Made by a program: the position numbers and the translations under genes. The notes under the pieces were generated by a model. That model was not told the DNA's origin and made no database searches. It saw nothing but the letters and a program-made list of their open reading frames with translations. Shown here piece after piece: positions 38,866-49,456 of a DNA stretch of 64,000 nucleotides. The DNA comes from Candidatus Saccharimonadales bacterium. GTDB taxonomy: Bacteria > Patescibacteriota > Saccharimonadia > Saccharimonadales > 2-12-FULL-41-12. Each line of letters begins with the position of its first letter. Position 1 is the stretch's first letter. The stretch is from positions 128,387 through 192,386 of the forward strand of contig JBFIJM010000001.1 of assembly GCA_041600715.1 (NCBI GenBank), written 5' to 3'.

Positions 38866-40416
38866 ATGAGCAAAGCAACGAAACAGCAAATTACAAACTA
38901 TATTAGTAATTATATTGGCGAGAATGGGATGTTCCCGACACTAAATGAAGTTAAAGATGCAGTTGGTCTTAAATCTGTATCAACCGTACATCAACACATA
39001 AAAGACTTAGTAGACAACGGTATATTAGCCGTTGATGAAAATGGTGGATATAACCTAGCTTCGAAAGATGCAGAAATTACCAAGGTTCCTGTTTTAGGTT
39101 ATATTGCTGCAGGTTTTCCTATCGAGGCTATAGAAGAAGTTGCCACGCACATCGACGTTAGCAATTTACCCAAGGGCGATTTCTACGCGCTTCAAGTTAA
39201 AGGCAACAGTATGATTGATGACGGTATATTTGACGGAGATATTGTAGTTATTAAGAAACAGACTTCTGCCCAAAATGGACAAACCGTTGTGGCTGTAATT
39301 GACGACAATCAAGCCACGCTCAAAAAACTGTACAAAGAAGACGGGAAATTTAGACTACAGCCAGCAAATCAATCGATGCTTCCCCTAGTTAGGGAAGAGG
39401 TCGAAGTTCGTGGTATCGTATGGTCAATACACCGCAACTTAAACAATCCCATTAATGATTCTAATGTATTGCCCACAAAAGACTGGAAAACAGTTGATCT
39501 ATTCGCAGGTGTTGGGGGTATAAGGATTGGTTTTGAGAATGCTGGTTTTTCTACTGTGTTCGCGAATGATTTTGAGGCTAGGTGTGCCGATACATATAAT
39601 GCTAACTTTAAAACAGCAAAATTAGTGGTTGAGGATATTACAAAAATAGCTACTAAAGATATACCGGATTGTGATTTTGTGTTGGGGGGTTTTCCTTGTC
39701 AGGCGTTCTCCATCGCCGGTTACCGACACGGATTTAACGATATAAAAGGCCGTGGCAACCTATTTTTTGACATTGCAAGGATAATCAAAGACAAACAACC
39801 CACGGGGTTTTTGCTCGAGAATGTTAAAAATCTCAAAACACATGACGGTGGCAAGACTTTTGCAATTATTGAGCAAACTCTTAATGAGCTTGGCTATATT
39901 ATTAAATCCAAAGTTTTGAATTCAATGGATTATGGTAATGTGCCACAAAACCGGGAACGAATTTACATAGTTGGATTTAAAGATAAAGCTAAAATTGATA
40001 GCTTTGAATTTCCGGAACCTATAGAACTAACCAATACAATAAAAAATATTCTAGAGAAAAATGTTGATGAGAAGTATTACTATAATGGCAAGCCTTTGTA
40101 TGAGAAACTTAAGAATGATATTAACGAAGAAAACCAAGTGTACCAATGGCGCCGTAAGTATGTCCGCCAAAATAAAAAAGGTGTCTCACCTACTCTAACA
40201 GCGAATATGGGCATGGGTGGACACAACGTACCCATAATCTTCGATGGTAAAGGTATCAGGAAGTTAACACCAAGAGAATGTTTTCGTCTGCAAGGATTTC
40301 CAGATAGCTACAAGCTTCCTAAAATAGCTGACTCAGCACTTTATAAGCAAGCTGGAAACTCTGTAACAGTCACTGTTCTTGAGCAAATCGCTAGACAGAT
40401 AATAAAAGTACTATAA
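38866..40416 (+). CDS. LexA-like S24 autopeptidase repressor fused to a DNA (cytosine-5) methyltransferase
   Basis: One continuous 516-aa frame.
- Residues 1-~195 are LexA-like: a wHTH, scissile AAG in VLGYIAAGFPIEA, Ser in VKGNSM, and Lys in ATLKKL.
- Residues ~207-516 are Dcm-type: DLFAGVGG (I), GFPCQAFS (IV), ENVKNL (VI), QNRERIY (VIII) and GNSVTV (X). Confidence 0.85.
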   Translation: MSKATKQQITNYISNYIGENGMFPTLNEVKDAVGLKSVSTVHQHIKDLVDNGILAVDENGGYNLASKDAEITKVPVLGYIAAGFPIEAIEEVATHIDVSNLPKGDFYALQVKGNSMIDDGIFDGDIVVIKKQTSAQNGQTVVAVIDDNQATLKKLYKEDGKFRLQPANQSMLPLVREEVEVRGIVWSIHRNLNNPINDSNVLPTKDWKTVDLFAGVGGIRIGFENAGFSTVFANDFEARCADTYNANFKTAKLVVEDITKIATKDIPDCDFVLGGFPCQAFSIAGYRHGFNDIKGRGNLFFDIARIIKDKQPTGFLLENVKNLKTHDGGKTFAIIEQTLNELGYIIKSKVLNSMDYGNVPQNRERIYIVGFKDKAKIDSFEFPEPIELTNTIKNILEKNVDEKYYYNGKPLYEKLKNDINEENQVYQWRRKYVRQNKKGVSPTLTANMGMGGHNVPIIFDGKGIRKLTPRECFRLQGFPDSYKLPKIADSALYKQAGNSVTVTVLEQIARQIIKVL

Positions 40417-41499
40417 CTATTTTATATATTGCTCAATATCACGGAGCATCACTGTCTCTTTGTCAGGAATTTTCTCTATAATTGATTTGTTCATAAAGTA
40501 TTCTTCACCCCCGTTAGATGATCGATCAAGTAGCTGGAATTTAATAATGTAAGTTTTGTTAGCGTCCAGTAAAGTGTCATTAATTACAGCGCTTGCGGTA
40601 GTAAAGATGGTGATGGAACTTTTACTATTTTTAACAACAGTAATATGCTCGATATTCTCAACATATACATCCAGAAGTTTATGCTTGTTATTACTATCCA
40701 AAATATTTTTAACCCAGCTATATAAACCACACTTGTTTTTAGTCATAATATTTATTAGCGGGTAAACTACTGGGATAATCTTGGGTGTTCTGGTTTCGTT
40801 TATTTCTTTAACATAAAATGGGCTCTCATTACCTAAGCAAAGAGTTGAGTAGGATATAAAATCACTGGCAGAACAGACTGTTATGAGCTTAAGCGAGCCT
40901 AGATCAGAATTAACTCTTTCAATTTTGGTGATCGATGAAAGGGCTTCATTTTCGTTCGTTTTTATGAAGATGTCATCGTTCATTTTTAATTGTTTATACG
41001 TATCTTCACTGATGACCGAACTTTCAAAAAAAGGCAACAGATAATCACAGTCAAGATTTGTTTCAACCATAACTAGATACTTATTCTCGTAACCTTGGTT
41101 CCTTAGACTCACCATGTATTGTGTTTTCTTGAAAGATTTAACTTCAATTTGAGGTGCATTATCTAAGGGTAGCCACTTATTCGCATATTCTACGAACGGC
41201 TTAGCAATATTACCGACTCTTATGCCGAGAACATCCGGGGCAATACCAGATTTTTTTGGATCATACTCATAATAATCGGATATAACTGATAAATTATCTG
41301 ATAATTTAGGTAAAAAATATTTATTGAAAATTATACTTTCAGGAATAATATTTATCCAGCGGTCAAAAATACCACCTATATAATCACTTTTGCCACTAAG
41401 ACCACCGTACATCTTCCCTCTTTGCGCCATCGAGCAAACAAAGTATATATACGGGGTTATATCCTCTTTACAAATAGTTATGTCTCTGTGGCTGGGCAT
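40417..41499 (-). CDS. Putative type II restriction endonuclease (PD-(D/E)xK)
   Basis: Convergent with the MTase, and the two ORFs abut at 40416/40417. Candidate catalytic motif IAPD...QIEVK. The gene is very AT-rich and has no other recognisable domain. Confidence 0.55.
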   Translation of the reverse strand: MPSHRDITICKEDITPYIYFVCSMAQRGKMYGGLSGKSDYIGGIFDRWINIIPESIIFNKYFLPKLSDNLSVISDYYEYDPKKSGIAPDVLGIRVGNIAKPFVEYANKWLPLDNAPQIEVKSFKKTQYMVSLRNQGYENKYLVMVETNLDCDYLLPFFESSVISEDTYKQLKMNDDIFIKTNENEALSSITKIERVNSDLGSLKLITVCSASDFISYSTLCLGNESPFYVKEINETRTPKIIPVVYPLINIMTKNKCGLYSWVKNILDSNNKHKLLDVYVENIEHITVVKNSKSSITIFTTASAVINDTLLDANKTYIIKFQLLDRSSNGGEEYFMNKSIIEKIPDKETVMLRDIEQYIK

Positions 41500-41645
41500 A
41501 TTTACCTACAGTTTAGCAGTTTTAAGATGAAACAACCTTAAGAACATGCTGAAAATGCTAAGCTACAGCCATGCTTGAAGTAAACTCTTGTGCGTGGCTT
41601 TGTTGACTGAACCTGCGGTTCGAATTCATCTTCGCTGAATCTAAT

Positions 41646-41671
41646 CTAAAAAACCCAGCCATAAGGCTGAG
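41646..41671 (-). terminator. Intrinsic terminator next to the displaced tRNA-Asn 3' fragment
   Basis: Minus strand reads CTCAGCC-TTAT-GGCTGGG followed by TTTTTTAG, immediately downstream (on the minus strand) of the 19-bp tRNA fragment. Confidence 0.5.
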
Positions 41672-41680
41672 TATTTTAGT

Positions 41681-41699
41681 TTGGCTCGGGAGGCCGGAC
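41681..41699. repeat. Left att-type direct repeat (copy of the tRNA-Asn 3' end)
   Basis: TTGGCTCGGGAGGCCGGAC is identical to 49381-49399, exactly 7700 bp away. Confidence 0.8.
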
Positions 41700-41914
41700 A
41701 GCGCTACGCTTCTCCATTCCGGCGTGCTCGAAGCGAGCTTCTGCACGCGTCCTCATTTAACCGAACCAACTCTTCGAGACGGTTCGTGTTCCGATTCTTC
41801 CAGGATCGAAGAATTAAAAAGGCCAGATAAATCTGACCTTCTTAATTCTTGGCTCACAACGATAGAGGAAGTCATAACTGCGGTTAAGCACGATGCATAT
41901 ACTTTTGGTGCGCT

Positions 41915-42607
41915 TTAAACTCGTTTTTTTAGATTGTAGTCATCGACTTTCTCTTTTCGAGCTTCGGCAATATCAATATAGCTTGAGGGGTCTCTAATAA
42001 AGTCCTCCCATTTTACTTGGTGTATATAAGAGTGATGGCCGCCAACATGGTAGGTAGTGTCATGAAGCGGGTTTGGACAAGATTGCTTAGATGGCTGTTT
42101 CAAGTTGAACATGTTCTTATCCAGCATACTGAATAGATTGGCGGTCCTGTGTGTGACGACATTACAGTGCCCACAACCGTCTGGTTGGTAATAATGATCA
42201 TACGAACCGAACTCGTCTGGCAGAATCACGGCAAGCATTCCGTTACGCTTCGAGCGGCGTTCCTCGCCGGGAAAAGCTCTACGTGTGAGTGAATACTGTA
42301 TTTCCCATGGAATCCACTGCTCTGCTTCTTCTTTATCCACTTCCTTCATTCCTTTAGAAACAAGTACAATAGTGATTGAGCTACCTCTTATAAGCTGCTT
42401 TAAGTGAGTACGGATCGTTTCATCAGTAAAGGCCGATAGATCGTTATCGCCGTCCTCACCATTATAGATCTCTGTGTCAGCGACTGTCTGCATGATCAGA
42501 TCAACATAATCACGAGCCGTGCCAAGTTGGGGTACGTCATCGTTAGGGTACAATTTTGCTACTGCATTATCATAGTACTTATAGCTTACAAAAATTCTAC
42601 GTGCCAT
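41915..42607 (-). CDS. ThsB-like TIR domain protein (DUF1863-type TIR-like)
   Basis: MARRIFVSYKYYD..., SSITIVLVSKGM and EQWIPWEIQYS follow the same pattern as Thoeris ThsB (RVFFSFHYQD, VTVVLIGS, WVRYEI with the catalytic Glu). Confidence 0.65.
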   Translation of the reverse strand: MARRIFVSYKYYDNAVAKLYPNDDVPQLGTARDYVDLIMQTVADTEIYNGEDGDNDLSAFTDETIRTHLKQLIRGSSITIVLVSKGMKEVDKEEAEQWIPWEIQYSLTRRAFPGEERRSKRNGMLAVILPDEFGSYDHYYQPDGCGHCNVVTHRTANLFSMLDKNMFNLKQPSKQSCPNPLHDTTYHVGGHHSYIHQVKWEDFIRDPSSYIDIAEARKEKVDDYNLKKRV

Positions 42608-42609
42608 AT

Positions 42610-43044
42610 CTATCCTATCCGCACTGCTATCGTAATGTCACTAAGTACGCAAACAAGGATGGCCAACAATATCAAAGTAACTCCATAAAATGCACACAGG
42701 ACTGGTCGCCATAGTGTTTTGAACCACACGCTAAATGTTTTGTCTTCCTTGGCGGGTGTTATTTTGAAGTTAATCTTAGAAGGTGGTGTCGTTGCTACAG
42801 TATTGTATATATTGACGAACGCACGCTCTAGCATTAAGTAGTAAGCGTCTACTGCCCAGAAGACAAGTGTTGATGCTATTGGTATGGCGAGGAGTGCTTT
42901 GTTATTGCCTTTGGCGGCATAGACGGAAATAGCTGCTATGAGTGTGATAGACCAGCCCTTGAATAAGAACGAGTTAGAGGCCATGCGAGTAATAACCTGT
43001 TGTACCATCTCCAAATGCTTTCGCTTATCGTCGCCCGTCGTCAT
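42610..43044 (-). CDS. Small 3-TM membrane protein, operon partner of the TIR protein
   Basis: 144 aa with a short cytosolic N-terminus (KRKHLEMVQQVITRMASN) and three hydrophobic helices. Its stop lies 2 nt before the TIR gene start. Confidence 0.55.
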   Translation of the reverse strand: MTTGDDKRKHLEMVQQVITRMASNSFLFKGWSITLIAAISVYAAKGNNKALLAIPIASTLVFWAVDAYYLMLERAFVNIYNTVATTPPSKINFKITPAKEDKTFSVWFKTLWRPVLCAFYGVTLILLAILVCVLSDITIAVRIG

Positions 43045-43050
43045 GGCTCA

Positions 43051-43079
43051 ATAATAGACTGGCGGCCAAATATTTGCAA
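43051..43079 (-). promoter_or_regulatory. Putative promoter TTGCAA-17-TATTAT, ATG 6 nt downstream (leaderless geometry)
   Basis: Read on the minus strand directly upstream of ATG 43044 of the TM/TIR operon. Confidence 0.4.
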
Positions 43080-43246
43080 TACTAGCATAAACATTTCCGA
43101 GTATATAAAGCTTATGCTTCAGTCATGTCGAAAGTAATATGTGCTTTCAGCCATAACGATAGAACAGGTCATAACTGCAACCAAGGCTGACATGAGATAT
43201 AACTTTGTTAAAAATTGAAGTGATTAAAGCTGTTACAATTACTTAT

Positions 43247-43579
43247 ATGATGAAAAAAGCATACTTAATTCTTGCAGTATCTCTTCTGATTATGCCAGCC
43301 CTTGGAACTGTTGCTAGTGCTCAAGGTGGGTATTACATGTCACAGGGGGAGGCTCAGCTCGAAGAGGCTCGTCAGGATGCACGAGAGGAACAGGCCTTCA
43401 GAGAAGACCTGGAGCTTGAATCGAAAGTCTCAGCGGTTGAAGCACAAGAGGAAAAGGAACGAGCGGACGCAAATGAAGCAAACAAATATTTGATTGTGTA
43501 TGGTGCACTAGGAGTGGGCGCAATTTTTCTTATATCTCTCTTGAATCATTTGCGGCAGAAGCACAGTAGGCATCTCTAG
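43247..43579 (+). CDS. Hypothetical secreted/anchored protein
   Basis: Start at MMKKAYLILAVSLLIMPALGTVASA (signal peptide), an acidic coiled middle and a C-terminal TM. Confidence 0.45.
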   Translation: MMKKAYLILAVSLLIMPALGTVASAQGGYYMSQGEAQLEEARQDAREEQAFREDLELESKVSAVEAQEEKERADANEANKYLIVYGALGVGAIFLISLLNHLRQKHSRHL

Positions 43580-43628
43580 TCGCTGAAGTTAGCACATAAT
43601 TATTGAGAGGCTTTCCATTCCTAATCTT

Positions 43629-44204
43629 TTACGGTGTTCTACCCAGCTTCGTCTTAATGCCGTCATGCCCAGAGCACATACCCCGATAATCTGGCTTAGA
43701 CGGAGTGTCTTGGTAGCTTATTGATCCGTCATTGCATATCGCTTTTAGGGGTAAGTTGGGGTCTTCAGTAGTAGCAGGTACAGCTGTTTGGCTTGGGGTG
43801 TTCGTGCTTGCAGCTTCTTTGGCTTTTGCAGCAGCCACAGCAGCAGCTTCTTCCTCTGTTTTCTTTTGAGCCGCTTCTTCAGCAGCTTTCTTCTCAGCTT
43901 CTTCTTGAGCCGCTTCTTCAGCAGCCTTTTTAGCTTCTAATTCTTTCTGTGTCTCTGATTCAGATTGTTCTTGTGTAGTAGTAACGCTATTTTGTTGATT
44001 GTTCGTATCAGCGGGCTTCGTAGTGGCAGCAGCAATCGTGAAAGGAATCATGATGACGGCGATAATCGAGGTTAAGCCAATTTTAAGATTCTTACTCCAA
44101 TTAGATTTAGCCCATGCGTACCAGATTAAGAAGTAGGGGAAGAATAAAATCGCTACCACTAGCCCCCAACCGTGCTTGTACCATTCTTTCTTAACGTCTG
44201 CCAT
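43629..44204 (-). CDS. Membrane protein with C-terminal DUF3761-like Cys motif
   Basis: Two N-terminal TMs and a low-complexity (KAAEEAAQ)n linker. The C-terminal CNDGSISYQDTPSKPDYRGMCSGHDGI resembles DUF3761. Confidence 0.5.
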   Translation of the reverse strand: MADVKKEWYKHGWGLVVAILFFPYFLIWYAWAKSNWSKNLKIGLTSIIAVIMIPFTIAAATTKPADTNNQQNSVTTTQEQSESETQKELEAKKAAEEAAQEEAEKKAAEEAAQKKTEEEAAAVAAAKAKEAASTNTPSQTAVPATTEDPNLPLKAICNDGSISYQDTPSKPDYRGMCSGHDGIKTKLGRTP

Positions 44205-44239
44205 AAATCTCTCCTATACTACTGACTTTAACACCTTAC

Positions 44240-44734
44240 TTACTTTTTCTTATTCTTTTCCATTTCATTACGCACTATTACAGCGACGAGTGTGGTTATG
44301 ATTAACGTAACTGGTAAGGTATTCCAAAATTTATTCCACTTCTGGGTGCTTGTAGCTTCATAGCCGTCATCTGCATATTCTATACAGGTACTCCCTCGAT
44401 TATCTGTGTCTGTACTCTCGATACAAGTTGGATTACCCAGAGTTAGAGCTAAGTAAGAGCTAATTGCAATAGCTGCAATAACTCCAACAATCATGAATGG
44501 CAAAGCTTTACCTTTTTCTGCTTCCTTTTTAATCCACTCCCAACCTAACATTGGGATCGCACATACTACCAATAAGGCAGCCCCAATGCCAGCACCCCAC
44601 AATAGTCCAACAAGTGGGCTTGAGGTATCACTGAAGAAACCTATGACGCTGCCAACTATTCCAAACATAAAGACAGGTATCAGCGTTAGTAGATACAAAG
44701 CTTTCGGCATCTTCTCGTTATGTTCCTCGGTCAT
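44240..44734 (-). CDS. Hypothetical multi-TM membrane protein
   Basis: 164-aa ORF with 4 hydrophobic helices and a Cys-containing loop. Confidence 0.45.
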   Translation of the reverse strand: MTEEHNEKMPKALYLLTLIPVFMFGIVGSVIGFFSDTSSPLVGLLWGAGIGAALLVVCAIPMLGWEWIKKEAEKGKALPFMIVGVIAAIAISSYLALTLGNPTCIESTDTDNRGSTCIEYADDGYEATSTQKWNKFWNTLPVTLIITTLVAVIVRNEMEKNKKK

Positions 44735-44842
44735 CTATTTCTTCCTCGAGTATTTACTCATTTAACTAATTAAACTATACGATACTTACAAGTAAAAAGG
44801 CAGCGTACAGCTGCCCTCTTACACTCATTAACAATATATCTA

Positions 44843-45418
44843 TTACTGCAAACTAACTTTTACGCCATCACTGAATGCACTGTCGTGTAGCTGTGCCGTA
44901 GTTGGTGTCTGGTCTTTTGGAATATCAAAGACGATTACGCCCTCAACGCTGTTTCCAGGGTTAATGTTACTAAACAAAGTTGAATAGTTCTGATCCACGT
45001 AGATACCTGCTGCATCATCAGCAGCATACTGCTGATTCTGTGCGTTTAGAAGCTTCTGGTTTGAGCCAAAGAAGCCTTGTGCCTCGTTGCCGATGTTCTT
45101 AACATTCACTGTCATAAGACAGAACTGCCCTTGTGCATTCTTCTTGAGATACTCGTTTGTCCCAATAGTCGTAGTACCACACTCTACTTTTTTAACCACA
45201 AACTCAAACTTTCCGTCCCTTGCTGCTTCATTCAGCTTAACAGTGGTCGCCTTTTTGTCTTCTGATTTTGTAACACCACTACCACCGCCAGCAGAACTGT
45301 TATCTGATTTGCTCCCACCCCCAGAGGCATTCGCTATTACTCCGATAGCGATAAACGCCAGGATTACTGTTAATACTTTGTGTTTGGCAAACCAACTCTT
45401 TTTCTTGCCTTCCGCCAT
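44843..45418 (-). CDS. DUF4352 domain-containing membrane-anchored protein
   Basis: Start at MAEGKKKSWFAKHK (RBS AAAGGAG), then a TM. FEFVVKKVECG...GQFCLMTVNVKNIGNEAQ...GVIVFDIP is typical of DUF4352. Confidence 0.6.
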   Translation of the reverse strand: MAEGKKKSWFAKHKVLTVILAFIAIGVIANASGGGSKSDNSSAGGGSGVTKSEDKKATTVKLNEAARDGKFEFVVKKVECGTTTIGTNEYLKKNAQGQFCLMTVNVKNIGNEAQGFFGSNQKLLNAQNQQYAADDAAGIYVDQNYSTLFSNINPGNSVEGVIVFDIPKDQTPTTAQLHDSAFSDGVKVSLQ

Positions 45419-45524
45419 TATAGAGTCTCCTTTTAACTTATATCTGTGAACTATAAACAATAACGAGCAAAAAATAAAGTCCCACTTTATGTTTATTGTC
45501 CTCTGTTGTTCCTAACCTTAGAGT

Positions 45525-45751
45525 ATGCCAACAACAATTGAACAGAATTTTCTAAGAGCATTTGGTAAGCAAGTCGCAGCATTGCGTAAGTCTCGTAACA
45601 TTACACAGCAGCAACTAGCTAAGAAATTGGGGTAAGTGTCGTTACGATTGCATATATAGAGACTGGCAAGCAATGGGTACGCCCTAAAACTCTGGGTGCG
45701 ATAGCCAAAAGCTTAAAGGTAAATGTTAGCGATCTTTTTCGCAGCATATAA
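45525..45751 (+). pseudogene. XRE-family HTH regulator interrupted by a 1-nt frameshift in a G4 run
   Basis: MPTTIEQNFLRAFGKQVAALRKSRNITQQQLAKKLG stops at 45633. The HTH continues in the next frame as VSVVTIAYIETGKQWVRPKTLGAIAKSLKVNVSDLFRSI. The shift lies at GGGG 45629-45632. Confidence 0.65.
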
Positions 45752-46066
45752 TAATACCCGACTTTTGTCCAAAAACGCTCCACATGGCTCGAGGTGAGTC
45801 CACAGAGGGCATATTTTTTATGGGTATGTTGTTCATCTTTTTACTGCTGAAAACAATGAGCAATACTGCAGAAATTTTTTTCTGAGATTTTTGGCCCTCT
45901 AACGTCATTTATTTTGTTATTTTTGCCATGCCATAGGTCAGAAATATATTGATCGATTGCGTTCATGGCGTGTTATGCCCATTGGTTATTTATCTGCATA
46001 AATTGTTCCCTGAAAATAACGTCTGTTACTGCATTTCTACTTCACGCTATAATGTTCACCAACACT

Positions 46067-46921
46067 ATGAAAGCTACAAATAAGGCATCACAAGCTAACG
46101 ACTACGCAATAGCAAAAGCACTAAATGATTTAGTCAACGGAATAGTATTGCAACTGTGTGCAGGAAATGCATACGATTTTTATACAGACAACGACATAGA
46201 GGGGCTGAACCGTGCATATATCCTCTTAACTCATGAACTTGCAAAAATATATTCACGTAATCAAGAACTACTTGCCATACAGCCCGAGCCGATATGGAGA
46301 CGTTTTGAAATTCTTAAGGGCGGTCCTATAGAGGAGATAGCGTCATATGTAGCTGATACTGAAGATTTTGGATATGCTCATAATCTAAAGGTGGAAAAGC
46401 TATGTGTCATTGCTGGTATAGACGCACCCGTCTATACTCCCGAACAGCATGAGTTGATTAAAACCACAGATCTCATTACTAGTCAGCATGCTAAAAAAGT
46501 TAAAGCTGCAATTAAAAATGAAAAAAAACCAGAAAAAGAGTATGGCTGGGAGATAATGTGTTACTACCTGACTTACAAGCCGGACGGCACAATCTTGATT
46601 AACGATGTCTTAAAGCTTAAGAAAGTTCATGCAGGGTCTATCACTGAAAAACTATTAGAACAATCGATTAAGACCCCCGATACAAAATTTAAACCCGATC
46701 TAGGCAAGACATCCAGAAATCTCAGCACCATAATCAGCAGTGCTGGTTTTACGCCTGTTCTTAGGGATTTGTTCTTTCCAACTGTCAGTGGCGACGCAAT
46801 TGTGTTTCGCCGTTTGGTAAGTAGAGAGCAAGCTATACTAGAGCGAATAGATACTGAAGAACTAGATTTACGTCTTAAAGAAAATGGAGCTGTGGGTAGA
46901 GTTGTCTTTGAACCGAACTGA
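46067..46921 (+). CDS. Hypothetical protein (island cargo)
   Basis: Long ORF with no motif recognised. Start uncertain: track 45965, ATG 46052 overlaps a TATAAT box, ATG 46067 chosen. Confidence 0.4.
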   Translation: MKATNKASQANDYAIAKALNDLVNGIVLQLCAGNAYDFYTDNDIEGLNRAYILLTHELAKIYSRNQELLAIQPEPIWRRFEILKGGPIEEIASYVADTEDFGYAHNLKVEKLCVIAGIDAPVYTPEQHELIKTTDLITSQHAKKVKAAIKNEKKPEKEYGWEIMCYYLTYKPDGTILINDVLKLKKVHAGSITEKLLEQSIKTPDTKFKPDLGKTSRNLSTIISSAGFTPVLRDLFFPTVSGDAIVFRRLVSREQAILERIDTEELDLRLKENGAVGRVVFEPN

Positions 46922-47062
46922 ACCGAAAAGAACCATTTAAAACGACATCAAACTGATACAGCGACCTAAAGCTTAATAAGATCTTTAATGGTGAACAGGA
47001 CGAATAATCCGAGTTCACCTAACCTTAATCGTCTCGTTAGGCGGACTCCATAGGAGTCAGTA

Positions 47063-47212
47063 ATGACAACAAATAATAAGCTCGTTGAAAGGTTTCAGGA
47101 GCTACACATTAAAAAGTTCGGGATAGAAATAAGCTACGAAGTAGCTAAACATCAATTAAAAGAACTAGCTGAGCTAGTACGACTAACTTCGAAAGTTGAG
47201 GCACTGAAATGA
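47063..47212 (+). CDS. Small hypothetical protein (49 aa)
   Basis: MTTNNKLVERFQELHIKKFGIEISYEVAKHQLKELAELVRLTSKVEALK, with RBS TAGGAG and an ATGA overlap with the next ORF. Confidence 0.4.
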   Translation: MTTNNKLVERFQELHIKKFGIEISYEVAKHQLKELAELVRLTSKVEALK

Positions 47213-47583
47213 AAGCCTTCAGCGTAGAAGCCGAGTACCATATGCTACTTGAGAAAATTGGTGCACATAGAGTCAAAATTAAAATTCTTGATCCAGACTT
47301 AGCAATGTACATAAACGGTATGGTTGTATTTACGCCTGACGGCGATAAGCATCCAGAGTGGACTGTATATACGCCAAAAGCTGGTAACGCTCGCATCGTT
47401 GAGTTCGCTAAAAGCTCAACTTTGTGGAAAGAGATTCAGGAAGCATGTATCGATGTAGTCAAGCTTGAAGAATCTTACAAAGATATGGATAAGGTCGATA
47501 ACATGAAAAAATACGAAAAGATGTCTGATGATGAATTCAACGATGATTTGAAGATAGATTTAGACAAGATCTTCCCTGACTAA
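47209..47583 (+). CDS. Hypothetical protein (island cargo)
   Basis: 124-aa ORF translationally coupled to the preceding small ORF. No motif recognised. Confidence 0.45.
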   Translation: MKAFSVEAEYHMLLEKIGAHRVKIKILDPDLAMYINGMVVFTPDGDKHPEWTVYTPKAGNARIVEFAKSSTLWKEIQEACIDVVKLEESYKDMDKVDNMKKYEKMSDDEFNDDLKIDLDKIFPD

Positions 47584-47605
47584 CTAACATAAATAATTTA
47601 ACAAA

Positions 47606-47696
47606 ATCTTTACTAATACAGGAAATCTTAACTAAAGATAATATCTATTACTTATATAAAGATATTCTTAGCTAAAGGTTTCCTGTAAGTAAAGAT
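47606..47696. repeat. ~90-bp imperfect palindrome upstream of the recombinase gene
   Basis: Left arm ATCTTTACTAATACAGGAAATCTTAACTAAAGATAATATC. The reverse complement of the right arm is ATCTTTACTTACAGGAAACCTTTAGCTAAGAATATC. The centre is 15 nt. Confidence 0.6.
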
Positions 47697-47786
47697 GTAT
47701 GCCCGGAAGTAACGATATACAACCGAACAGAATCCAACTATAATTAAACAATGAAATAGGACAATTGTCCAGTAAAGGAAATTACA

Positions 47787-49423
47787 ATGTACGACAAAAA
47801 TTTACAGAACTTACGCTATCGCTTGTATGCCCGTAAGTCTACGGACACAGAAGATAGGCAGGTTCAATCACTTGAAGACCAAGTGAAGTATATGAAAGAT
47901 AGAGCCGAGGAACTTGGTCTGAAGATTATCGGTAAGCCAATTCGTGAGTCTAAGTCAGCCAAGCGCCCAAATAATCGTCCCCTATTTTCTGAAATGCTGA
48001 AAGAAATAGAGGAAGACAAAATTGATGGAATCATCTGCTGGAAGGTCGATCGACTATCCAGGAATCCTACTGATTCCGGGCATATACAACAGCTATTACA
48101 AGACGATAAAATAAAGCACATTCTAGCGATGGATAGAAGCTATTTCCCAGAGGATAATTCTATTGTATTTAGTGTTGAAGCGAGTCAGGCTAACGAGTAT
48201 GTTCGTAAGCTTGCCGTTGATACTCGACGAGGTATGCAATCAAAAGCCGAAAAAGGAGACAAGCCAGGTGTTCCGCCTGTAGGTTACTTAAACGATCGTA
48301 TAGATAAGAAAGTTATTGCTGATCCTGATCGCTTTGCCTCTATGCGAATACTTTGGGACAAGATGCTTACGGGTACATACTCAAGGCACAACTTGTACAT
48401 GTGGCTGATAAAGAACTGCACATCACTACACCAGTTAGAGGCAAAACAGGTGGAAAGCCGATTTCCTATTCAACTCTTTGCGTTCTATTCAAGAATCGAT
48501 TTTATACGGGTCAACTGCCATTTAAGGGTGAGGTGTACCCTGGAAATCACCCTGCTATGATCACAGAGGAAGAATTTGAGCGTGTGCAGCAAATCATTGA
48601 TCCGTCACATACGACACGTCCTAAAGATAAGACCTATAACTTCCAGCTACGCAACTTATTCCTATGTGGCGAATGTGGTTTTGCGATTACTGTCGAACAA
48701 AAGCAGAAGCTCATAAAGTCTACTGGCGAAACCAAGACTTATATCTACTATCACTGCACAGGCAAAAATAAGAACATTAAATGTACTCAACCAAAAACAC
48801 ACGTTACTGAAGACGAGCTACTTAAACAAATTAAAGAAAAGCTTTCTAGATTTACTATTGACCCCGATTTCTACAAGCTGGCGATTGAACGGCTGGCTCA
48901 AGAAGAAGATGAGGTCGTAGAAAAGAACAACACCAAGACGATAGCTCATGAAAGAGCTATTAAGAAAGCTGAAACATCTATAACAAACCTGCGTCGTATG
49001 AGGTACGCAGGTGAAGCAGATGATGACTCTTGGTACTTTGCTGAAATAAAGACGCTAGAAGACGAGCTAGAACGCTTACAGGAGGCTCGTAATAAAGATG
49101 AGTATAAGGCTCGCAATTGGCGTGCCGTGGCTGATGAGACATTCACTTTTGCTCGTTACGCTAAGGAAGACTTTGACAGTGATGATTTAGAGAAGAAACG
49201 TTCTGTTGTCATGAAGCTAGGGGAAAAGCTGACGATTCTGGATAGAACCATTCAATTTACTCCTAATAAATACTTCATTCCGCTTGAAAAAATGAACGAA
49301 CAGCAGAAACTTGCCCCAGAAATGGTTAGAACCGACTTCCAACAGAGGGAAATCGGTCCTAAAAACGACCTTGTTCTATCTTGGCTCGGGAGGCCGGACT
49401 CGAACCGGCAACCTCGAAGTTAA
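47787..49423 (+). pseudogene. Large serine recombinase, split by a -1 frameshift near 48383; 3' end reads into tRNA-Asn
   Basis: - Frame 1 carries the resolvase domain (YARKSTDTEDRQVQSLEDQ, WKVDRLSRN).
- Frame 2 carries the recombinase and zinc-ribbon domains (LFKNRFYTGQL, CGECGF...YYHCTG) and a coiled coil.
- Homology is continuous across ...LTGTYS/KAQLVHVADKELHITTP.
- The last 14 codons translate the tRNA. Confidence 0.8.
49381..49399. repeat. Right att-type direct repeat (inside tRNA-Asn 3' end)
   Basis: Identical to 41681-41699. Confidence 0.8.
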
Positions 49424-49456
49424 CAGCTTCTTGCTCCACCATTGAGCTACTCCCGA
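49382..49456 (-). tRNA. tRNA-Asn (anticodon GTT), CCA encoded
   Basis: Reverse complement is TCGGGAG-TA-GCTC-AATGGTG-GAGC-A-AGAAG-CTGTTAA-CTTCG-AGGTT-GCCGG-TTCGAGT-CCGGC-CTCCCGA-G-CCA. Confidence 0.9.

Follow-up and report, generated by a model that had tools for sequence, protein, structure and literature searches.

The 64,000-nt stretch analysed here (hereafter the window; positions 128,387 to 192,386 of contig JBFIJM010000001.1, assembly GCA_041600715.1, from a Candidatus Saccharimonadales bacterium) contains a gene for a large serine recombinase that, on the plus strand, runs head-on into the 3′-end of a tRNA-Asn(GTT) gene (49382-49456, minus strand; 64.5 bits), and sequences resembling the 3′-end of this recombinase gene recur far upstream of it. 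The locus thus raises the question of which element these features delimit, and of where the recombinase would exchange the DNA strands. Comparison with related loci (cited by L numbers, their proteins by P numbers) indicates, with a probability of about 0.85, that the segment 41856-49387 is a 7.5-kb integrative element of Saccharibacteria, put at the 3′-tip of tRNA-Asn by the large serine recombinase. Indeed, a TGGCTC direct repeat flanks the island, at 41850 and 49382, the tRNA gene is restored and the recombinase adjoins one end; comparison of the relatives also showed putative attachment sites of each of the four types, together with a circle in free form, a site lacking the island, and elements arrayed in tandem.

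The recombinase gene (47787-49423, plus strand) codes for the Resolvase (PF00239, 2.2e-21), Recombinase (PF07508) and Zn_ribbon_recom (PF13408) domains. Residues Y14, R16, K17 and S18 (YARKS) are invariant across 20 aligned homologues and at least 90% conserved across 40 in a second alignment, and the AF2 model of the intact homologue P0104 has a coiled coil inside the zinc ribbon, with helices 362-407 and 414-464 between its strands. In the window the loss of one nucleotide near 48385 (the T in TCA A[T]G GCA) splits the gene into open reading frames (ORFs) of 257 and 356 residues; its homologues are intact, with 545 residues. The strain has only one other assembly (L097), which contains the frameshift as well; as its 20.9 kb are 100% identical to the window, it provides no independent check of the deletion, and it may share source data with the window assembly.

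Both the C-terminal end and the stop of the recombinase derive from the complement of the tRNA gene: the protein ends with DLVLSWL|GRPDSNRQPRS, the TGG of its Trp codon is the complement of the tRNA CCA, and the stop TAA of the integrated state (49421-49423) is the complement of U35-U36-A37 of the anticodon loop. The C-terminal part, used as query, retrieved 366 homologues, mostly of 545 residues and from Saccharimonadales, and the ends were classified in the best 120 of the 366. In 106 of these 120 homologues SWL is followed by tRNA-encoded residues (e.g. RGLDSNQRPSG, RRLDSNQQPRS and GRPDSNRQPRS), which are the translated complement of the tRNA-Asn of different species; 85 of the 106 tails have exactly 11 residues, and many database entries have 545, because the stop TAA complements U35-U36-A37. 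This constitutes an annotation pitfall, as 11 residues of the 545-residue database proteins are really tRNA sequence. The other ends comprise a second tail type (e.g. PLVDTLRT...) in nine proteins, one tail of no listed type, three proteins cut off at SWL, and P0104, which ends in SWLPVIEEVITIIKNDLVLI and a stop, resembling the two tails found in the window. All close genomic relatives have the stop of the recombinase ORF inside the opposite-strand tRNA-Asn gene, and the junction lies exactly after TGGCTC.

The attR of the window consists of the P arm (49361-49381) and the core TGGCTC (49382-49387), and, as in all relatives, it reads from the recombinase 3′-end through TGGCTC into the tRNA gene. 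The corresponding attL lies 4.5-10.5 kb upstream in L002, L004, L007, L009, L012, L022, L026, L084, L087 and L088, and is made up of a non-coding flank, often with a terminator hairpin, TGGCTC and a conserved arm, A(C/A)NACGATAGAGGAAGTTATAAC, which translates as WL-TTIEEVIT.IK.D and runs on to a stop. The window has a canonical attL with the same parts: the pre-existing flank, or B arm (41804-41849), which is on the minus strand and is identical to the arm abutting the intact tRNA in L096; the core (41850-41855, plus strand); and tail A (41856-41918, plus strand), comprising a P′ half-site (41856-41879) and the final 20 codons of the recombinase, displaced from their gene, TTIEEVITAVKHDAYTFGAL, followed by a stop. 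The attP was seen in the element that carries P0104, as ...ctctatctTGGCTCcccgtaatagaggaagttataac, inside the recombinase gene. This element is represented by two contigs of 8960 bp from two samples (L081 and L082), which, with 141-bp end overlaps and different start points, give an 8819-bp free circle; this is a relative of 66-76% identity, its recombinase ends with SWL-PVIEEVITIIKNDLVLI and a stop, and circle-borne recombinases have 17-20 codons after SWL. The attB is represented by the metagenome contig L096, from a different but related genome, in which the flank that occupies 41700-41849 in the window, B arm included, is joined at TGGCTC to an intact tRNA-Asn gene with no island. As a side observation, positions 1-17954 of L080 hold a head-to-tail dimer of the 8.8-kb element with no tRNA, the copies of which differ at 6% of positions; the dimer may be a genuine tandem of two different copies, or an artefact of assembling two strains together.

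Only TGGCTC is common to all four site types, attP (L081), attB (L096), and attL and attR (at least 14 loci), and therefore the crossover is placed within it. This agrees with the proposal of a first-pass annotation, which had been made from the letters of the window and had located the crossover core inside the recombinase's own 3′-end, within TCTTGGCTC; among the pairs of boundaries that it listed, 41856/49387 coincides with the island limits as given by TGGCTC at attL and attR across the relatives. The inverted repeats CTCTATC (recombinase side) and GATAGAG (tail side) lie 12 nt apart, and a position-weight symmetry scan centred the dyad between the last T and the C of TGGCTC; thus the predicted crossover dinucleotide is TC, at 41854-41855 and 49386-49387, which would correspond to tRNA positions A72-G71. 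Joining the island ends in silico gives ...PKNDLVLSWLTTIEEVITAVKHDAYTFGAL and a stop, that is, a 20-codon tail of the native type.

The tail is present twice in the window, as the first-pass annotation had recognized with the translations that we also obtain: ACGATAGAGGAAGTCATAACTGC (41859-41881) recurs at 43156-43178 with three mismatches, against 0.00 expected occurrences in 100 dinucleotide shuffles. The tails at 41856-41918 and 43153-43218 are, on sequence grounds, related far beyond chance, and they match the true C-terminus of the recombinase family; in the intact homologue P0104 this reads ...SWL[TP][TV]IEEVIT.IK.D, as had been expected of such homologues. In a codon comparison of 15 distinct tails, codons 5-10 are nearly invariant, third positions included, which fits a putative DNA binding site. 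At codon 12 Ile or Val is specified by ATC, ATA, ATT and GTT, at codon 13 Lys or Arg by AAG, AAA, CGA and CGG, and at codon 15 Asp, Glu or Gly is kept; similarly, the second tail type keeps D.LR[TN] through differing Leu and Arg codons. The synonymous variation at codons 12 and 13 points to probable selection on the peptide too. Whether the exchange of tails may act as a built-in state switch, in which the tail of the circular form ([TV][IV][ED]EV[IR]T.[IL][KR].[DE]) would be tuned for integration and the 11-residue tRNA tail of the integrated form would confer a different stability or directionality, is a more doubtful proposal; if true, it would represent a widespread and so far undescribed coupling of recombinase activity to the integration state.

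These data suggest the following mechanism. The attP would lie within the last ~20 codons of the recombinase gene, as ...CTATCT-TGGCTC-ACAACGATAGAGGAAGTYATAAC..., its TGG being the complement of the tRNA CCA, and strand exchange would take place at the TC of TGGCTC. The tRNA stays intact after insertion. Insertion would fuse the recombinase to 11 tRNA-encoded residues, with a stop from the complement of the anticodon-loop bases, and would strand the true tail (TTIEEVITAVKHD..., ending in a stop) at the far end of the island, as tail A in attL. Excision would rebuild ...NDLVLSWLTTIEEVITAVKHDAYTFGAL and the stop, the predicted circle junction 49387|41856 reading ...TCTATCTTGGCTCACAACGATAGAGG.... 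The second tail of the window, tail B, would mark the junction where a second element inserted by the tRNA behind an older one, which would have kept its tail and its cargo of a ThsB-type TIR protein and a membrane protein.

A different boundary had been suggested by the direct repeat that is exact over 41680-41699 and 49380-49399, one base beyond the 19 bp noticed earlier. Eighteen of its bases (41682-41699, minus strand), which with 41681 make up the 19 bp, reproduce the 3′-terminal 18 nt of tRNA-Asn (T-stem, acceptor and CCA) as a fossil and lie outside the island, 150 bp from attL, at the outer end of a unit of ~170 nt (41682-41849) whose GC-rich, conserved non-coding part spans 41700-41803, downstream of tRNA-Asn. 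The unit has counterparts of about 75% identity next to host genes in L092-L095 and at the island-free site of L096; its non-coding versions in three genomes were delimited at 41682-41849 in the window, 5612-5785 in L092 and 78-271 in L096. The fossil tRNA-Asn pieces that it contains are an exact copy of nt 1-18 in the window and an exact 14-mer at nt 19-33 in L096; the idea of a tRNA pseudogene was discarded, as the match to tRNA-Asn past the exact 18-mer is borderline (P = 0.05) and the L096 14-mer differs, leaving fossil pieces. An Rfam scan of 41350-42000 (E <= 5) gave only noise, so no known RNA explains the GC-rich unit; the consensus fold from the three genomes shows two conserved hairpins, with too few sequences to judge covariation. 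The 25+25-nt palindrome at 41804-41855 forms, on the tRNA strand, a hairpin followed by UUUUUAAUUCUU, and is, by its sequence, a putative intrinsic terminator for tRNA-Asn. The B arm that it covers includes the "KSDLLNS" segment that the first-pass annotation had described as a second copy of the recombinase segment.

If excision occurred through the 19-bp repeats, as that annotation proposed, the circle would carry a recombinase extended by 72 codons, and 41829-41855 would be the stump of a third, older recombinase in the array. Starting at 41682, the frame entering the left repeat (WLGRPD) does run on for 79 codons before it meets a stop at 41916-41918, the 19 bp of the repeat show no mismatch, and 41829-41855 matches 49361-49387 at 20 of 27 positions, in frame, giving K.DL..SWL. 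The open frame, however, is not conserved: the versions of the unit in the window, L092 and L096 differ by 1-nt and 3-nt indels and remain open in frame for 81, 57 and 11 codons, respectively, and hence the long frame is not a conserved coding sequence. Furthermore, the whole 41682-41855 unit adjoins an island-free tRNA-Asn in L096 and host genes in L092, the window is the only one of 23 loci in which the repeat extends beyond TGGCTC, and real circles end 17-20 codons after SWL. This explanation is accordingly very improbable; the 41700/49399 boundary gives way to 41856-49387, with the 19-bp repeat left outside the island, and the 27-nt duplicate, although present, is the pre-insertion flank of tRNA-Asn, as in L096, and not a leftover of a neighbouring recombinase. 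The significance of the duplicate is modest, since 5 of 200 Markov simulations (2.5%) of 64 kb produced an unanchored match of at least 20/27. That figure is the one point in favour of regarding all these similarities as chance matches in AT-rich DNA, whose probability is negligible and which is refuted for the tails by the zero expectation in shuffles and by the recurrence of the tail after TGGCTC in more than 15 independent loci. It is conceivable, at somewhat less than even odds, that the flank at 41804-41849, now an attB arm, is itself the fossil of an ancient recombinase 3′-end, kept as a tRNA terminator, which would be compatible with the insertion of the element at TGGCTC. When anchored on TGGCTC, the upstream 21 nt match at 14/21 positions, compared with 6.0 +/- 2.5 for the remaining 28 TGGCTC sites of the window; the flank of L022 resembles its own recombinase end (z = 4.1), the sole case significant when unanchored; those of L012 and L088 translate as ...KVRT(14 aa)LAWL, like the recombinase C-terminus; and antisense terminators occur in recombinase 3′-ends at an equal distance from CCA. 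On the other hand, aligned without anchoring to 19 recombinase ends, the window flank scores no better than shuffles do (z = 0.2), and the likeness could stem from shared binding-site and terminator constraints.

With regard to tail B (43147-43218, plus strand), which comprises a relic P′ half-site and a tail (ITIEQVITATKADMRYNFVKN and a stop), the P′ arm is kept with three changes (43153-43218), and the core is destroyed, reading TCAGCC. Its best reading is that of a relic of an earlier tandem insertion, with an older element stripped of its core genes and a newer one beside the tRNA: 43153-49387 has the standard layout of the family (tail, minus-strand cargo, a three-gene core coding for 284, 49 and 124 residues, and recombinase), and 41856-43152 retains just tail and cargo. 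The tandem accretion put forward in the first-pass annotation is real in relatives: in the L084 array the first recombinase (P0082) is fused to the tail of the second element, whose own recombinase abuts tRNA-Asn, the same pattern is found in L145, and two tails lie 0.4-1 kb apart in each of L012, L007 and L004. Alternatively, a single element may have gained the TIR/membrane protein module and a second tail by recombination or internal duplication; the lack of a recombinase remnant on the left of tail B, and the presence of an intact core and a consensus P′ arm only in tail A, speak for such an origin, which nevertheless appears unlikely given the documented recombinase-tail fusions of L084 and L145, the complete element layout of 43153-49387 alone, and the tail spacings of L012, L007 and L004, which show that older units shrink in place. 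If tail B is the scar of a sequential insertion, its inner site is dead and the two elements are now fused into one composite, which would be immobile, given the frameshift in the recombinase and the loss of the inner core.

Some points weigh against this interpretation of the island and of its two tails. The four site types were drawn from different genomes, and the window's own genome has neither circle nor empty-site reads, the sole other assembly being the identical, frameshifted L097; the position of the crossover dinucleotide comes from symmetry alone. The sequence to the left of tail B, compared with 15 recombinase 3′-ends, gave nothing above shuffles; as it is unlike any of them, the origin of this junction as P|P′ is only a putative one. 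The order of the insertions that accretion implies is unprovable from the map, because insertion into attR or into attL gives an identical one. Finally, in the AlphaFold model of the recombinase with the native tail, the tail is helical and of low confidence, with a predicted local distance difference test score (pLDDT) of about 50.

The arrangement extends well beyond Saccharibacteria. The family profile was used to fetch 79 genome loci, in 54 of which the ORF of the recombinase has its stop inside an opposite-strand tRNA gene, and these tRNA-ending recombinases include enzymes just 24-45% identical. Their hosts comprise other phyla of the Candidate Phyla Radiation (CPR), Coxiellaceae and Sphingomonas (Proteobacteria), Vicinamibacterales, Planctomycetota, Dependentiae, Gastranaerophilales (Melainabacteria) and Muribaculaceae (Bacteroidota), and they are found also on several IMG/VR phage contigs; the tRNAs targeted are of at least ten species (Asn, Arg, Leu, Ala, Gly, His, Ile, Ser, Lys and Val). 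In L019, L020, L021 and L042, tails with the same motif lie upstream, after TGG. No recognizable phage genes were found in PHROG and Pfam scans of the core of the window's element; in IMG/VR the exact P′ pattern is absent and the relatives are all at or below 34% identity, so the element is not recognized as viral. The open literature, as searched, contained no account of the family, nor of any large serine recombinase acting at the CCA end of a tRNA whose own gene contains attP.

The window recombinase shares with the integrases of the phiC31, Bxb1 and A118 type the domain set and the zinc-ribbon coiled coil, and its element shares with theirs hybrid attL and attR; short att sites with an imperfect dyad around a predicted central dinucleotide may be a further likeness. 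In the model serine integrases attP typically lies outside int and attB in protein-coding genes. Unlike in these systems, the attP of the window element would lie within the recombinase coding sequence, so that the last ~20 residues vary with the integration state, and its target is the CCA end of a tRNA gene. An attP inside the integrase gene is known for archaeal viruses of the SSV1 type, in which integration into a tRNA gene splits the gene; these enzymes are tyrosine recombinases, and the gene is cut into large N- and C-terminal parts and thereby inactivated. The attP found here is likewise inside the ORF of the window element's recombinase, but the protein has serine recombinase domains only, just the tail is exchanged, and an open 545-residue gene remains. 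Islands made by tyrosine integrases at tRNA genes offer a further parallel, in that they insert at the tRNA 3′-end, restore the gene, accrete in tandem and leave fossil tRNA fragments at the hot spot; they differ in the enzyme family and in the extent of identity, which is just 6 bp here, whereas longer identity with the tRNA sequence is typical of tyrosine integrases. In the integration-dependent immunity of mycobacteriophages, attP lies within the repressor gene, the C-terminus of which is altered on integration.

The closest documented likeness is seen in phiRSM, in which a small serine recombinase integrates a small circle into the 3′-end of tRNA-Ser in reverse orientation; its attP, TGGCGGAGAGGGT, has a core beginning with TGG, shows a 13-nt identity and is placed between ORF14 and ORF15 (PMC3816273). 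Both systems thus have a serine recombinase, a tRNA 3′-end used in reverse and a core starting with TGG; phiRSM differs in its small resolvase-like enzyme and intergenic attP, the window element having a large enzyme of the 545-residue type, attP in the gene and no phage genes. The related phiRSS0 has attP inside ORF13, and integration shortens this regulator from 156 to 130 residues (PMC3816273); there it is the C-terminus of a regulator that integration alters, and in the window element that of the recombinase itself. The tRNA-proximal element of L084 (16233-19992) codes for a 513-residue recombinase with the second tail type and for a rolling-circle replication protein that matches Phage_CRI/G2P above the Pfam cut-off (5.7e-6); this neighbouring element, with its inovirus-type G2P Rep, echoes the phiRSM filamentous phages.

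The comparison provides an integration system for Saccharibacteria, with putative attP, attB, attL and attR, a predicted crossover, a circle and an empty site. Few genetic tools are available for these bacteria, and an integrase that lands in tRNA-Asn, a gene present in every genome, is a candidate tool. As the recombinase gene would straddle attP, the C-terminus of the enzyme would differ between the free and the integrated state, and the effect of the tail on directionality or stability is directly testable.

The recombinase 3′-end may have a second role. Upstream of attR, in the window (49327-49381) and in L001, L002, L009, L022, L026 and L043, the last ~55 nt of the recombinase gene fold on the tRNA strand. 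Lineages with PAFQHGSLS have a canonical terminator there, consisting of a hairpin and a U-run immediately behind CCA (z about -5); in those with MVRTDSQQREIG, to which the window belongs, the hairpin has 14 bp and no U-run follows it. The element thus appears to bring a replacement tRNA terminator inside its own recombinase gene.

The core genes conserved in the family (46067-47583, plus strand) code for proteins of 284 (46067-46921), 49 (47063-47212) and 124 residues (47209-47583), with no match in Pfam, PHROGs or NCBIfam. The 284-residue protein has more than 200 homologues, all unnamed; its AlphaFold model is confident (pLDDT 87) and shows a helical bundle with a small alpha/beta domain, for which Foldseek found nothing at E < 1 in the PDB. 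The conserved 49- and 124-residue neighbours of this protein are candidates, and candidates only, for directionality factors.

The cargo next to tail A consists of a ThsB-type TIR protein (41915-42607, minus strand; PF08937; PDLC00428, 5.8e-69) and a 144-residue membrane protein of the candidate defence family PDC-M50A (42610-43044, minus strand; 2.7e-38). When tested as a Thoeris system, the module has ThsB but lacks the ThsA effector (SIR2 or Macro), its partner being the PDC-M50A membrane protein; 41915-43044 may be a Thoeris-like variant with a membrane effector. The module was found in none of the other fetched loci. Between tail B and the core genes, 43247-45460 holds variable cargo, comprising small membrane proteins and a DUF4352 protein. 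The cargo of related elements (L080-L088 and L145) is mostly of the defence type, and includes a GmrSD-like protein (DUF262/HNH) with an EcoRI-type methylase, HEPN_AbiU2, TerB_N together with DUF2130 and a large helicase, a Peptidase_S8 with an AAA protein, an OLD-TOPRIM with a UvrD helicase (Gabija-like), and ResIII with an Eco57I-type methylase. The gathering of defence cargo (ThsB, restriction-modification, Gabija-like and others) at the tip of tRNA-Asn would explain the variability of this region in the small CPR genomes.

Other elements evidently also use tRNA-Asn, with old tRNA fragments piling up. In L003 (2118-2165) the recombinase runs into no more than the 3′ half of tRNA-Asn: the homology breaks off at the anticodon loop (GGTTA|cac), and no tRNA is predicted by ARAGORN. 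The implication is a putative different element family, which would insert in the anticodon loop of tRNA-Asn and displace its 3′ half. In the window, the outer host flank at 41646-41681 contains a hairpin with T/A runs (CCCAGCCATAAGGCTGAG), homologous to the outermost B arm of L004 (site 1616). Further out, a single 516-residue ORF (38866-40416) joins LexA_DNA_bind and Peptidase_S24 domains to a C5 DNA methylase, and beside it lies an unannotated ORF of 360 residues (40417-41499), in DNA of low GC content (0.32-0.36); together they look like a restriction-modification pair, whose methylase bears a LexA-like self-cleaving regulator.

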